Source: Candidatus Poribacteria bacterium
Lineage (GTDB): Bacteria; Poribacteria; WGA-4E; PCPOR2b
DNA: 64,000 bases
Assembly (NCBI GenBank): GCA_965215015.1
Contig: OZ244042.1
Coordinates: 3,872,001 to 3,936,000 of the forward strand
Direction of reading: 5' to 3'
Position 1 is the first letter of the stretch; each line of letters starts with the position of its first letter. This document shows, piece after piece, positions 11,617-17,829 of this stretch. The translations under genes and the position numbers were made by a program. Under the pieces are notes generated by a model. It was not told the origin of the DNA, made no database searches, and saw only the letters and a list, made by a program, of their open reading frames with translations.

Positions 11617-11690
11617 ATTATGTATCCTTCCAATAAGCAATCAAACAGTGAGTTATAAAAAAACACGGGCTCTGTCGATTTTTCTAGGGT

Positions 11691-11931
11691 TAGGAGTTAC
11701 GCTCTTGAGAGTGTCGTAACGCGATTCAACCCGCGTCCCGATCCCCCCCCTTAGTCCCCCCGCAAGCGGCTGGAAAAGAACCGTAACTGCGAAATGTACC
11801 AAACATAGGACTTCTGTCGGTTGATTTTTCAAAATCAAAAATACCGAGAACATTGCGCTATAATCCGGGTGTTTTGTCGAGATATGAATCTCGACCGACA
11901 AGGCTTCGAGGGTTCAACTGCGTAACTCCTA
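11691..11931. mobile_element. MITE with TAGGAGTTACGC terminal inverted repeats carrying nested REP palindromes
   Basis: TAGGAGTTACGC...GCGTAACTCCTA ends; also 14695-14786 and 46431-46737; lone ends at 14257-14269 and 59180. Confidence 0.7.
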
Positions 11932-12004: not shown

Positions 12005-12871
12005 CTAATGTAAGCTATGGTGATCGTGGGTCACAGCACGTGTCAAGAGAAAAACAGCCAATAAACCAACTATGAAAACTATTGCCGCGATAGCCTTATT
12101 AGAAGAAAAAATTCTTTCTTTTATCGAAAGGACTTTGTGAGAATCTACATCTTCAGAATGCGGAGCGTGGGTGGGCACCTCATGACCGCCCTGAAAGCTC
12201 TCAATTGCCACATTCAACAGCGTGCCGGCAGCGAAGGCCGTCAGGTATTCGATAAATTCACCGAGCCTTCCACTCAAAATACGTTCCCCGATAAATGCAC
12301 CAATGACCGGCGCAATCGAGAGCGGAAGAAGCCGCCCGACGGTTGAGACAAATGCCAATCGTGCGCTGAACTGTAAACGAGATCCGAAGGGGAGGCCACG
12401 CCCATTGGCTGCAATAAGTGAGTTGGTACTGAGATACGCGAGCGTCAGCACAAAAGCAACTGGCAGGCGGTGTATTAAAATCACAGCAGCAAGCCCGGGA
12501 CCGAGCATCTCGTGTTTGCTTGCAATAACGAGGTTAAATCCATCGCTCAACGCGTGGATGGATAGCCCAATCAGTGTCACATCTGCGACCCATCGGTGAC
12601 TCTGTAGCGGGAATCGTGATTTGTTATGACTGATCCGCTCGAGCAGAAAGATTGGCAGAAAACCGGCCCCCATGACAAGGAGGCTTACCCAACCGAGATC
12701 TTTATAAAGGTGGGGTATGAGGAAAAAACCAATAAACCCCAAAACGGTACTGGCTTTGAACCCCATGAGTATTGCGAAAATGATCGGATCTGAACGGAGC
12801 GTATAGAAGGCGATGAGGGCACCGATAAAGATCGAGAGTACTGCAATTGTGAGATAGATAGTAAGCATCAA
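12005..12871 (-). CDS. ZIP (ZupT-like) divalent metal transporter
   Basis: Multiple TM helices, GLSIHALSDG and ILIHRLP signatures, FAAGTLL, His-rich loop and C-terminus. Confidence 0.8.
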   Translation of the reverse strand: MMLTIYLTIAVLSIFIGALIAFYTLRSDPIIFAILMGFKASTVLGFIGFFLIPHLYKDLGWVSLLVMGAGFLPIFLLERISHNKSRFPLQSHRWVADVTLIGLSIHALSDGFNLVIASKHEMLGPGLAAVILIHRLPVAFVLTLAYLSTNSLIAANGRGLPFGSRLQFSARLAFVSTVGRLLPLSIAPVIGAFIGERILSGRLGEFIEYLTAFAAGTLLNVAIESFQGGHEVPTHAPHSEDVDSHKVLSIKERIFSSNKAIAAIVFIVGLLAVFLLTRAVTHDHHSLH

Positions 12872-13396
12872 ATCTTGGGACTAGGGCTCCCACTCCTTTG
12901 TATATAAGAGCAATCTATTCTATTGTAACTCAACTACTATGTTTTTGTCACTGAAAATCCTAATATGGTGAGTGCGGCAATCCATTATCGGAACGAAAAA
13001 AGGCTGCATGTTACACTTCTGCTTTGGAAGGAGGCGTATGCCTATGACTTTGAGACATAACAATGAAAATCCACTCGTAGCCACAGATCTGCCAACCTGT
13101 GATCGCCTACAGGTTGGCAGACCTCATGCTACGACAGGGGTTGCCCCAAGGTTCTGATGGCTGAACTGCCTAATTCCTATAACAGATGCAATTCCCCTAG
13201 TCAACAGAGCCTAAATATTAAAATCTATCGATTTTCTGTTAAAGTTGAAGTATTTTCGCTCCGGAGGAGCGATAGGACTATAGAATACCGATAGCTCTAA
13301 TACCCGCGTTCCAGGGGAGTGCAATGTATAGAGCCCATCAGCTCAATACACCTTTGAGCGAATGAACCAACACTGCAATTCCCAAAGTAAATTCCC

Positions 13397-13981
13397 CTAC
13401 GGTGTAACCGTTACTGGAATCAGGAGTGCCGCCGTAAAATCTGCATGATCGCCATGCCAGAGCTGGAACTTAATCTCTGTCTCACCACTTTTAAGGCCTT
13501 TCACCTCAAAAGTGAATTGCTCGGCGAGCTCATCATCGTGGTGTTCCTCATCTTCATGATGGTCATTGTGCTCATCTTCATGATGATCGCCCTCACCTTC
13601 GTAAAGGTGGATTTCAATGATTGACGAATCAAATTCACTGACAGATAAGGCATATACCTCTTCCTCATCATGGTCATGATCGTCATGATCTTCCTCCTCT
13701 TCAGCGCTTTCAGGGAAAAATTCATCTTCATCATGGTCAAGGAACGCAGCGAGAATCTCTAATTCCTCTCCAACTTTAAGGGTGATATTGCCCTCATGAG
13801 TTCCTTGAAACTGACGGTAAATCTCCTTACCGTCAACCTTGAGGGTAAAGCCGTCAGCATCGGCATGCTCGGCATGACCACCGTCCGCGTCGGCAACAGG
13901 ATTATCATCTTCGCCACAAGCGGCGAACAACACAACAAATGCGAATAGCAATAGCGTGAATCTAAAGAAACGCGTAAACAT
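13397..13981 (-). CDS. His/Asp/Glu-rich lipoprotein, putative metal-binding
   Basis: Lipobox LFAAC; tracts DHDDHDHDEE and DHHEDEHNDHHEDEEHHDDE; C-terminal HGDHADF; SD GGAGG before ATG 13981. Confidence 0.8.
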   Translation of the reverse strand: MFTRFFRFTLLLFAFVVLFAACGEDDNPVADADGGHAEHADADGFTLKVDGKEIYRQFQGTHEGNITLKVGEELEILAAFLDHDEDEFFPESAEEEEDHDDHDHDEEEVYALSVSEFDSSIIEIHLYEGEGDHHEDEHNDHHEDEEHHDDELAEQFTFEVKGLKSGETEIKFQLWHGDHADFTAALLIPVTVTP

Positions 13982-14092
13982 AATGTCCTCCAAATATAGA
14001 TAGATTGTTTTTCCCAGCATCACGACTGATGAAATAGTAATGAGACCGACGCCGTTGAAGACTCAATGCTAACACTAGAAACGAGCACACCA

Positions 14093-14191
14093 TGTGCCCG
14101 GTGGATTGTGCCAATCGGGTGGCGCAATCCTGTCGGATATTCTATGGCGCAAGAGTCCCTGTATCCTTTGACAACTCAGCACCGGGGCACA
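14093..14191 (-). ncRNA. Candidate structured cis-regulatory RNA (three-way junction) in the lipoprotein leader
   Basis: P1 UGUGCCCCGGU/ACCGGGCACA, P2 UGUC(aaa)GGAUA/UAUCCGACA, P3 GGAUUGCGCCA/UGGCACAAUCC; no family recognised. Confidence 0.4.
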
Positions 14192-14366
14192 CTCCCCTGA
14201 GAGCCGATTCATCTAAGGAACTCGTAGGGGACACCGATCGGTATTCCCTACTGAAGTGCGTAAGTCCTAAGGAAATATAGGCAGACTATCACCAAGGTCA
14301 AATCAGCCGGAAAAAGGCAAAAATTGATTGAATCAAAAAAACAGAGATATGGGTTAAGCGATGAGA

Positions 14367-14669
14367 TTAAACGGAGGACACTGGTGGGGCACGACTTTGG
14401 ATACTGTTGTCAAGTATCGTGGAAATGAAAGTAAGGCTGAAAGGGGGGTGAATTGAGAGGCAGGTATCAAGATTGGTAATTTCAACAACATCAAGCTCAA
14501 CACCAACGTGGTTGACATTGAAGAAGCAAGCAGAACAATCTGTCGAACAGTGGCCAGTGTGGTCGTGTTCATGTTCATGTGCCACTCCAACCAGCCCAAT
14601 TGCCATCAGAGTACAAAAAATCCCAATTACCCAGCCGGTTGGATTGATGTGGATTCGATTGTTTTGCAA
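14367..14669 (-). CDS. DUF2946-like (CruR/CutF-type) leader peptide with His-rich/CxxC sensor and RAPP arrest motif
   Basis: Hydrophobic N-segment, HEHEHDHTGHCSTDCSAC, SRAPP four residues before the stop; SD GAGGGA before TTG. Confidence 0.75.
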   Translation of the reverse strand: MQNNRIHINPTGWVIGIFCTLMAIGLVGVAHEHEHDHTGHCSTDCSACFFNVNHVGVELDVVEITNLDTCLSIHPPFSLTFISTILDNSIQSRAPPVSSV

Positions 14670-14694
14670 AAACCTGTCCCTCTTCCAGATAATT

Positions 14695-14786
14695 TAGGAG
14701 TTACGCCGTTGAACCCTCGAAGCCTTGTTGGTCGAGATTCATATCTCGACACAGAAACGTTGATTCCATCAAGGGCGTAACTCCTA
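14695..14786. mobile_element. Short TAGGAGTTACGC-TIR MITE between the promoter and the leader ORF
   Basis: TIRs at both ends; internal GTCGAGATTCATATCTCGAC palindrome at 14731-14750. Confidence 0.7.
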
Positions 14787-14799
14787 TAATTGATAAGAG

Positions 14800-14828
14800 A
14801 TTATAGCACAACCCCCTGGTTTTGACAA
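14800..14828 (-). promoter_or_regulatory. sigma70 promoter TTGTCA-N17-TATAAT with extended -10
   Basis: Minus strand: TTGTCA aaaccagggggttgTGc TATAAT. Confidence 0.7.
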
Positions 14829-15455
14829 CTTTTTTAGTCGGCTGCGAAGTTTATAGTTGAATATGCCGCCTATGATATTGCGGTGCTAAAGACACAATCC
14901 AAGTCTATTCCAAGAGGCGGAACCCATGACAACATGTTCCCATCGATCTGTGCACGGTTGCTGTTCATTGATGCCTCGGTTCAAGCAGAGCCCCAATAAA
15001 TCGGGGTTCAAAACAACTTGAGATTTTTGTAGGGCAATTTTCCAAAATCGACATTTCTTGCTGATGGTTACAACGTTTGCTGAATTGGCGACACACAAAA
15101 TGTCAACACGCCTTGCGGATGTCGGTTATGTTAGCATAGGACTATTTAGTTTTCGGTTTTCTCTCTACCTGAGGGGTGTGGATTCGGAAATCCCTCCTAT
15201 AGAAGAACGAAATGCCCTAATATGTCAACTAGGTCATTTAACGGATTGTCCCCACTTGCGGGGGGATTAGAGGGGCTTGGGCTTCTTCTCCCCGTCGCAG
15301 ACAATCCTTACCCCCGGCCCCGTAAACGGAAAGAAGAATAAGACACACGCTAGAATACTGAGTGATCCCAGAATCCAGACAGATTGGGAAATATTGGGGT
15401 AACGGTAATTTTCTGTCATGTCAACCGCCGATTTGCGGAACATCGGTAATCGGTA

Positions 15456-17346: not shown

Positions 17347-17829
17347 CTACAATCCCAGAAACACCTTGACAATCAAAGCGATGAGTGCTAGATATATTGG
17401 TGTCATCAATCCAATAATCCATCTTAACTGCGTGTTGAGTTGACCCTCAATCCCAGAAATCCGTCCCTCAATTACCTCAAAACGCCTTTCAACTGCTTCA
17501 AAACGTCTCTCTATCTGCTCGAAACGTCTCTCCATCTGCTCGAAACGTCCCTCTATCTGCTCGAAACGATAGTTGACAGACTGGGTAAGGTCGTCAATAC
17601 GTTTATCCACCTGTTCAAAGCGGTAATTGAAAAGTTGAATGAGGTCGTCAAAACGTTTGTCCACCTGCTCAAAGCGTTGATTGATAGATTCAACCAGAGC
17701 CTCGAAGCGTTTGTCCATCTGCTCGAACGCGCCGCGCAAGTACGCATTATCTTTGGCATTCTGTTCAGCCATTTTGACGGTTTGCCGAACGGCTTCTCGG
17801 AGTTCAGCGGTCTCAGGATTAATATTCAT
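17347..17829 (-). CDS. Coiled-coil protein with FEQ(V/I)(D/E)(K/R)R heptads and C-terminal membrane anchor (DUF1640/Bdr-like)
   Basis: Heptad repeats encoded by 21-bp DNA repeats; terminal hydrophobic helix. Confidence 0.75.
   Translation of the reverse strand: MNINPETAELREAVRQTVKMAEQNAKDNAYLRGAFEQMDKRFEALVESINQRFEQVDKRFDDLIQLFNYRFEQVDKRIDDLTQSVNYRFEQIEGRFEQMERRFEQIERRFEAVERRFEVIEGRISGIEGQLNTQLRWIIGLMTPIYLALIALIVKVFLGL

Follow-up and report, generated by a model that had tools for sequence, protein, structure and literature searches.

At the tetrapeptide RAPP, ribosomes arrest with the two prolines occupying the P and A sites, as they also do in CruR (PMC10951233, PMC12992588). CruR stalling blocks Rho until copper binds a CxxC motif, and the spacing of 45 residues between CxxC and RAPP is required (PMC9426467); a ribosome stalled on CutF opens a stem that covers the ribosome-binding site downstream (PMC9973294). 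ZrgD (DUF2607/PF10795) is encoded first in zrg, the zinc-uptake operon that Zur regulates in the Vibrionaceae, and the papers searched describe it as a hypothetical protein and not as a leader (PMC9817125, PMC9820375). The present analysis concerns a 100-amino-acid (aa) open reading frame (ORF), called the leader below, on the minus strand of a 64,000-nucleotide stretch of a Candidatus Poribacteria bacterium (GCA_965215015.1, contig OZ244042.1, positions 3,872,001 to 3,936,000; the window). From sequence and by analogy, the evidence leans slightly toward the leader being a cis-acting arrest peptide of the CruR/CutF type that gates zinc-acquisition genes. By analogy, ribosome arrest at its RAPP motif is highly probable and cis control of the next gene is likely. 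The elements of the locus are given by their positions in the window.

14828 to 14800, minus strand: sigma70-like promoter TTGTCA-17-TG-TATAAT (extended TATAAT), 11/12 consensus.
14695 to 14786, no strand assigned: multicopy palindromic repeat (about 28 copies) in the 5' untranslated region (UTR) of the leader.
14669 to 14367, minus strand: CruR/ZrgD-like leader ORF, 100 aa, TTG start and TAA stop, made up of a hydrophobic segment, His tract, CxxC, linker and RAPP.
14550 to 14579, minus strand: His tract HEHEHDHTGH of the leader, residues 31–40.
14526 to 14537, minus strand: CxxC (C45-S-A-C48), which with the His tract and the invariant H54 makes up a putative metal site.
14394 to 14525, minus strand: 44-codon linker between CxxC and RAPP with an excess of C over G, a candidate Rho-utilisation site.
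14382 to 14393, minus strand: RAPP motif, residues 93–96, followed by four codons and TAA; arrest is predicted by analogy with CruR, ApdA and ApdP.
14373 to 14382, minus strand: 10 nt in the last leader codons that could pair with the ribosome-binding site, complementary to 13991–13982 (-17.5 kcal/mol).
13982 to 14366, minus strand: leader–lipoprotein intergenic region of 385 nt with a pyrimidine-rich 5' part, expanded by repeat insertions.
13981 to 13397, minus strand: His/acidic lipoprotein, 194 aa, lipobox Cys22, the usual first putative target of the leader.

A first-pass annotation of the window had described a promoter, a 100-aa ORF with a hydrophobic amino-terminal segment and RAPP four codons before its stop, a lipoprotein and a ZIP transporter, and all of these are present on the minus strand. 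The promoter ranks first of the 11 sites found (shuffled sequence gives 6.1 ± 2.4 sites of any quality), and many homologous leaders have the same promoter form about 50 nt upstream. In the window copy, the palindromic repeat stretches the 5' UTR from about 50 to about 120 nt. Residues 12–30 are hydrophobic (Kyte-Doolittle 19-mer mean 2.17) in a segment conserved among aligned relatives, and both H31 and H33 are kept in at least 90% of 25 aligned copies. The ORF is not a product of chance: the genome holds 182 open frames that carry R[AG]PP close to a stop, of which only 5 also contain CxxC, and 3 of those 5 belong to this leader family.

The leader was found in 47 of 61 relatives by a single-sequence query and in 142 of 176 genomes of the phylum by a profile search. 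Residues C45, C48, H54, R93, P95 and P96 are invariant in the 25 aligned leaders, while the linker varies in sequence and is constant in length. Of 56 ORFs picked by motif, 4 were spurious and were dropped; the Cys-to-Arg distance is 44 in 51 of the remaining 52 loci (44 in the window copy) and RAPP lies 44–46 residues from CxxC in all 120 listed homologues of 207 found, figures that are biased to the motifs themselves since the 52 were chosen by motif and the 120 by a profile weighting the same motifs. Where a homologue had two CxxC motifs, the script used the one nearest 44. A CruR-like CxxC/RAPP leader, which the first-pass annotation had proposed and had offered to abandon if the motifs were not conserved in homologues, is borne out, and it is conserved. 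Two of 40 fetched loci were without a motif-picked leader, one having an in-frame stop and the other CxxxC. Two copies of the leader (L045 in genome G022, with a TonB receptor gene downstream, and G006:C27:14798-15106) have an in-frame TGA in the linker and are probably pseudogenes.

Membership in a named family is less straightforward. The search with Pfam DUF2946 (gathering cut-off 23.7 bits) that had been suggested as a check returned no match to the window leader at E ≤ 1. Ten of the 25 aligned relatives match weakly (best E 2.6e-4), none in 31 genomes exceeds the cut-off, and 21 of 56 distant homologues match, 2 of them above it; thus, the leader family and DUF2946 are continuous. The Atlas neighbours of the window leader are unnamed clusters and one cluster that is 54% DUF2946. 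The DUF2607 model of ZrgD (cut-off 24 bits) matched 1 of the 25 relatives (E 0.04) and likewise nothing above its cut-off in the 31 genomes. A broad leader alignment retrieved only 9 proteins. Judged from these matches, the leader resembles DUF2946 in its predicted working, yet it is outside DUF2946 as a family.

In the 52 loci, the first gene after the leader is the lipoprotein in 36 (broken in 3), a TonB receptor in 14, and a MerC-like and a porin-like gene in one each. The downstream runs, bounded at 8 ORFs or 10 kb, contain a receptor in 30 cases, a MerC-like gene in 21, an ABC ATPase in 21, a MacB/FtsX permease in 17 and DUF3299 in 17, with COG0523 (3), Czc/Cus-type efflux (3), ZIP (1) and ZnuA with an ABC-3 permease (1, or 2 loci if L071, outside this tally, is counted) being rarer. 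An ATPase, a MacB-like permease and DUF3299 together form the layout of the zinc importer ZrgBCE (PMC9817125, PMC9820375), and the plasmid match with the best E listed for the permease (H2) lies in a Zrg operon of Fur-family, DUF2796, ATPase, permease and DUF3299 genes. In the downstream representatives scanned, the cargo is of zinc type and not of copper homeostasis: the copper families OprC, PCuAC, SCO, CopC and multicopper oxidase were absent from them, most of the 24 rare neighbours having been inspected, not scanned.

The same genome contains a paralogous locus at about 4.08 Mb, where one leader precedes a lipoprotein and a second precedes a TonB receptor. The latter leader is 195 kb from the window leader and heads a ZnuD-like receptor. 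Among NCBIfam models this receptor scores best with ZnuD (E about 1e-56), ahead of the copper receptor (E 1e-14 to 1e-19), all matches being under their cut-offs. The first-pass annotation had remarked on the absence of a TonB receptor. This is true of the window, but as a distinguishing property it is not supported: since the second leader at 4.08 Mb precedes a receptor, and 30 of the 52 runs contain one, the absence is a feature of the window only. The receptor itself (L001:8786-11260, about 4.083–4.085 Mb) has at its start a copy of about 84 lipoprotein residues in which the lipobox Cys has become Tyr, and the TonB receptor of relatives carries only the first codons of the lipoprotein. From these sequences, the receptor seems to have acquired its leader through duplication and fusion.

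Several neighbouring observations concern the cargo. At loci L067 and L071, the leader heads an unannotated 440-aa porin-like protein, ZnuA and an ABC-3 permease, and the L071 leader has CxxxC. At L053, L055, L064 and L065, Czc/Cus-type efflux genes follow the uptake genes and are preceded by a conserved unannotated ORF of 150–160 aa. In Catenovulum (L114:1436-4724), a MerC-domain gene is clustered with DUF3299 and Zrg-type ABC genes as in Poribacteria, a sequence arrangement hinting that these MerC-like proteins serve zinc uptake. The window genome also encodes a second RAPP-ending ORF at 4538317-4538796 on the minus strand (L207:10315-10797). It is Cys-rich, 160 aa long and hydrophobic at its amino terminus, and it precedes a hypothetical gene, an outer-membrane efflux protein and a Tat-exported multicopper oxidase; by sequence, it is a CutF/CopL-like copper leader. 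Since this separate Cys-rich ORF precedes a multicopper oxidase, His-rich and Cys-rich leaders appear to sort with zinc-type and copper-type cargo, respectively.

The lipoprotein gene occurs in 50 of 61 sampled genomes. The protein has no sequence match in Pfam or the PDB, and weak Pfam and NCBIfam matches are noise. Its model is predicted to have an Ig-like fold with two disordered His/Asp/Glu loops and compares best with Ig-like domains (Z 9.7, rmsd 2.6, 88 aligned). Homology to ZrgA (DUF2796) is not supported, given the lack of a sequence match, the Ig-like model and the absence of ZrgA from the fold matches listed. The lipoprotein of Poribacteria sits in the operon place of ZrgA, a protein that is ferredoxin-like where the lipoprotein is predicted to be Ig-like.

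The zrg operons of other phyla provide a second line of evidence for zinc. Of 80 loci fetched, 15 were without a zrgA match or enough upstream DNA, leaving 65 that could be evaluated. An ORF with a hydrophobic segment, His, Cys and R[AGS]PP lies just before zrgA in 25 of the 65, compared with none of 65 on the opposite strand. The Cys is exactly 44 residues from the Arg in 21 of these 25 ORFs and 43–46 residues in all of them, 12 pass Pfam DUF2607 (the ZrgD family), and 16 are accompanied by a Zur box that is perfect or has a single mismatch. They are present at all 9 evaluable Vibrio loci but absent from those of Pseudomonas and Stutzerimonas. When 19 of these ORFs were combined in a profile, it matched the Poribacteria leaders with a probability of 96%. 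The source data of PMC12992588 (file 8) already place DUF2796 in the top 30 downstream classes, with 137 RAPP against 2 AAPP ORFs, and list DUF2607-DUF2796 pairs and 'zinc-regulated TonB-dependent' receptors; in its main text, the terms 'zinc', 'Zur', 'ZrgA' and 'DUF2796' are absent. A literature search, whose coverage left out most subscription papers, turned up no study that tests a RAPP leader for a response to zinc and none that names ZrgD a leader. The arrangement had at first been taken as one not recognised as described. Both the kind of leader (CruR, CutF) and, in published source data, the association of RAPP ORFs with zrgA are already known.

The distribution of Zur supplies a third line of evidence. 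In genus g11, 6 of 10 genomes contain leaders (7 in all) that are preceded, at a distance of 176–181 nt, by a perfect TGTTATAnnATAACA box, which is how the box of the zrg promoter in Vibrio is written (PMC9817125); 5 of these 6 genomes have a Zur-like gene. The same TGTTATAnnATAACA box is found upstream of a Fur-family gene with Zur as its best match. Across the phylum, the Zur-like gene is present in 27–28 of 176 genomes, 22 of which carry the leader. There was no Zur-like match in 120 of the 142 leader-bearing genomes, the window genome included, with a model that was positive in only 3 of 14 control genomes, so that other types of Zur can be missed. The window genome has neither a Zur-like gene nor a perfect box; Fur-like, PerR-like and DtxR-like regulators were found. 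The Zur-like gene (L203-L206) is of proteobacterial type with 1–3 Zur boxes upstream, and it is patchy in Poribacteria while being 84–100% identical across two families, suggesting from sequence either recent spread or repeated loss. At L111-L112 (about 61.8–64 kb, this genome), a DtxR-family regulator stands beside the only ZnuA/TroA-type ABC binding protein of the genome; this pair is probably a manganese or iron system.

Since the leader heads zinc-uptake genes in relatives, a zinc version of the CruR-type switch is probable, and on sequence grounds zinc is moderately favoured as the physiological signal. The zinc inference of the first-pass annotation survives on grounds other than its own, namely the Zrg-type ABC genes, COG0523, ZnuA/B and the Zur boxes. 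A wider proposal, held tentatively and with a little less than even confidence, is that leaders with a His tract and a Cys 44 residues before RAPP, comprising the Poribacteria family and Vibrio ZrgD, sense zinc co-translationally in a wide range of bacteria, where they would act as a second layer under Zur or as a stand-in for it depending on the lineage.

The proposed mechanism would begin with a ribosome stalled on the RAPP of the leader, as shown for CruR and expected in Poribacteria. Residues at least 44 positions from RAPP clear the exit tunnel. In the stalled state, the His tract and CxxC would be outside the tunnel, probably at the Sec translocon or the periplasmic face. When zinc is low, a persistent stall would shield the C-rich unstructured stretch from Rho, which is present in this genome, and the downstream gene would be expressed; in the window copy, the stall would also shield the 10 nt able to pair with the next ribosome-binding site. 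When zinc is bound, the nascent His/Cys site would fold, the stall would be relieved and the operon would be turned off. This direction is drawn from CruR because the cargo serves uptake, as it does there. Within the window, the target would be the His-rich lipoprotein alone. The operon layout of the CruR type is recognisable, with the promoter form directly upstream in many homologues and at least about 120 nt to the next ribosome-binding site. In many relatives, the region between the leader and the next gene is about 120–160 nt. Rho termination is the likelier common read-out, and translational coupling is possible in some copies. A structured RNA element is not supported: the single Rfam match was a repeat hairpin whose score fell well short of a microRNA cut-off, and the consensus fold of 21 intergenic regions (-1.55 kcal/mol, 6 pairs, none compensatory) was without covariation.

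Several observations, to which the motif bias of the leader sets may be added, weigh against a zinc-gating arrest leader. The linker mRNA has more C than G in 52 of 52 leaders and is in the top 5% of the background in 48, an excess that is mostly a matter of amino-acid composition, with p about 0.1 for the window copy against codon resampling. The tail pairing beats control windows (top 5%) in only 11 of 36 homologues and is without compensatory change. In folding calculations, a forced stalled-ribosome footprint barely opened the ribosome-binding site, and there was no clear opening in 23 loci. The Zur box is found at only 4 of the 52 fetched Poribacteria leaders and was not seen at the fetched leaders of genus g1, even in genomes with a Zur-like gene. 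The ZnuD match of the receptor scores 193 bits where the family cut-off is 950. Single zrgD knockouts under zinc chelation are described as having no effect on growth (PMC9820375, citing earlier work), in contrast to deletion of cruR, which strongly lowers downstream expression. Finally, CxxC is the copper sensor of CruR, and zinc has only a moderate effect on CruR (PMC9426467).

The last point bears on the strongest competing explanation, in which the same arrest mechanism operates and the metal sensed is copper, cobalt, nickel or any thiophilic metal instead of zinc. A CxxC with a spacing of about 45 residues is the copper site of CruR (PMC9426467), and CutF-like leaders with His only precede nickel and cobalt genes (PMC9973294). 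COG0523/CobW proteins serve other metals as well. The Czc/Cus-type efflux genes in 3 of the 52 runs, which are ambiguous, and NosL of the copper chaperone family (L001:345-818), which occupies a separate run about 5.3 kb upstream of the 4.08 Mb leaders, also count on this side. In opposition, the downstream representatives scanned contain none of the five copper families named above, the Zur boxes and the Zrg, ZnuD and ZnuA cargo indicate zinc, the Cys-rich RAPP ORF before a multicopper oxidase is a separate entity in the same genome, and Vibrio ZrgD retains a single Cys together with His residues. A metal other than zinc is thus considered unlikely.

The ZIP gene requires separate treatment, as it had been taken for a target of the leader in a single run of genes. 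The relevant features lie downstream of the lipoprotein and around the leader–lipoprotein cassette.

13288 to 14946, minus strand: duplicated segment, a copy of the locus at about 4.08 Mb in the same genome.
13026 to 15438, no strand assigned: insertion relative to the close relative G003, where a cupin gene is directly upstream of ZIP.
13075 to 13134, no strand assigned: multicopy palindromic repeat in the lipoprotein–ZIP gap.
12922 to 12951, minus strand: ZIP promoter-like motif GTGACA-18-TACAAT, kept in 17/19 same-genus loci.
12871 to 12005, minus strand: putative divergent ZIP-family transporter, an ancestral neighbour of dnaE; its match to Pfam Zip (PF02535) is below the cut-off.

Assignment of the last gene to the ZIP family is weak but consistent. 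Its match to Pfam Zip has an E of 5e-6 and 26.3 bits (cut-off 35.1), the conserved residues H106, D110-G111, H134 and P137 are present, and a low-confidence model (pLDDT 58) returned BbZIP structures as its top 8 Foldseek rows, all with E > 0.1. In 19 of 19 same-genus loci, ZIP adjoins dnaE, and the 1.5 kb upstream of ZIP contain neither a leader nor a lipoprotein gene; in the 18 leader-bearing genomes of the genus ZIP is either more than 500 kb from the leader (12) or on a separate contig (6). Since the cupin gene abuts ZIP in G003, the segment 13026–15438 is read as an insertion. The duplicate and the 4.08 Mb locus share 97.5% nucleotide identity over the lipoprotein part and 93% over the leader and promoter. 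By these comparisons, the cassette is a recent duplicate inserted between the cupin gene and ZIP. An assembly artefact is unlikely because contigs from four runs of one study, possibly of the source sample, bridge both cassette junctions and the depth approximately doubles over the lipoprotein. Palindromic repeat families at 11690-11931, 13027-13199, 14099-14271, 14695-14788 and 15027-15329 (up to about 46 copies by BLAST) occupy intergenic regions and flank the cassette, and these repeats may have mediated its insertion. Further along the window (17347-17829), a 160-aa protein has short heptad-like repeats and a C-terminal hydrophobic tail.

It could be argued that the leader nevertheless controls ZIP here by read-through, forming the TonB-free leader–lipoprotein–ZIP unit envisaged in the first-pass annotation. 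The genes share a strand, as that annotation had stated, the promoter and ORFs are intact, no T-tailed terminator was scored between the lipoprotein and ZIP, and a metal importer would be a fitting target. However, the claim of one run holds only for the shared orientation: between the lipoprotein and ZIP lie 525 nt that contain strong repeats and the promoter motif of ZIP itself, the one kept in 17 of 19 loci. In addition, the synteny survey places ZIP after the leader in 1 of 52 loci, that of the window, and the distance or separate contig seen in 18 of 18 genomes together with the recent insertion argues for chance proximity. ZIP was therefore rejected as a conserved target. Control by read-through is improbable, and ZIP is very probably not the real target of the leader; in this genome it is an accidental neighbour, and the leader–lipoprotein–ZIP arrangement is a local duplication.

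Two further explanations dispense with metal sensing by the nascent chain. The ORF might stall as a secretion monitor that responds to Sec pulling, as in SecM, ApdA and ApdP, or serve as a constitutive anti-termination device, with the His and Cys residues not acting as an input. The hydrophobic amino-terminal segment and RAPP are as in ApdA/ApdP (PMC10951233), and the targets are exported; but no sec or yidC gene was identified downstream, and the invariant C45, C48 and H54 with their fixed spacing would be left unexplained, making this account very improbable. That the product is instead exported and works in trans, as a small His-rich chaperone for metal or as an accessory subunit, its RAPP being incidental, would suit the His tract right after a cleavable-looking segment and the description of ZrgD as a possible zinc-transfer accessory (PMC9820375), but is most improbable of all given that the leader is first in the operon at inspected loci and is duplicated with its promoter and intergenic region before each target, that the linker is fixed in length though variable in sequence, and that RAPP is strongly avoided in proteomes (PMC12992588).

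A cis-acting leader that gates zinc uptake would have consequences beyond this locus. Accounts of zinc uptake in bacteria rely almost entirely on repressors of transcription, Zur being one, and according to the CruR paper no zinc or copper riboswitch is known (PMC9426467). The arrest-peptide metal sensors tested in the papers found, CruR and CutF, answer to copper; if the leader senses zinc, the mechanism gains a second metal. It would then constitute a type of zinc switch, acting after transcription, that has yet to be demonstrated. It would also give a function to ZrgD, whose gene opens an operon proven to take up zinc but is itself unexplained, and offer a route to regulated zinc import in bacteria without Zur. 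The matched His-rich and Cys-rich leaders of one genome would also be a system for studying the choice of metal by a nascent chain. What the analysis leaves is a case, open to test, that leaders with a His tract and a Cys 44 residues before RAPP, ZrgD included, gate zinc uptake, possibly without Zur.

The leader may finally be considered in terms of the four systems that it most resembles. CruR of Bordetella pertussis (Bp2923, DUF2946/PF11162; PMC9426467, PMC12992588) is likewise the first gene of a metal-uptake operon. Both have an export signal, CxxC, a spacer of 44–45 residues and RAPP 3–4 codons before the stop, and both are accompanied by a stretch with more C than G, a long intergenic region, a TonB receptor as a frequent target and Rho. 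The leader differs in being 100 and not 145 aa long, in having a His tract directly before CxxC and in lying below the DUF2946 cut-off. Its cargo is of zinc type (ZnuD-like, ZrgBCE-like, COG0523, ZnuA/B), and some copies have Zur boxes. ApdA and ApdP share RAPP near the carboxy terminus and an amino-terminal localisation signal; unlike the leader, they precede sec genes and monitor protein export (PMC10951233).

CutF of Rhodobacter capsulatus and the CutF-like clusters resemble the leader as small exported Cys/His proteins with a proline-rich end and action in cis (PMC9973294, PMC8456105, bioRxiv 10.1101/2025.02.05.636593), and both may exert control through a stem hiding the next ribosome-binding site. 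In contrast to the leader, CutF has CxxxC, and copper induces its stalling to turn on a detoxifying oxidase, where the cargo of the leader serves uptake. Some CutF-like proteins may sense nickel or cobalt, and the word 'zinc' is absent from the text of that paper (PMC9973294). Vibrio ZrgD departs from the leader in its HxxHHC with a single Cys, its frequent RSPP and its shorter intergenic region. Nonetheless, ZrgD and the leader are both of about 100 aa with one hydrophobic segment, a His tract and a Cys 44 residues before R[AS]PP, and both are first in operons with an ABC ATPase, a MacB-like permease and DUF3299, in keeping with the profile match between the two.

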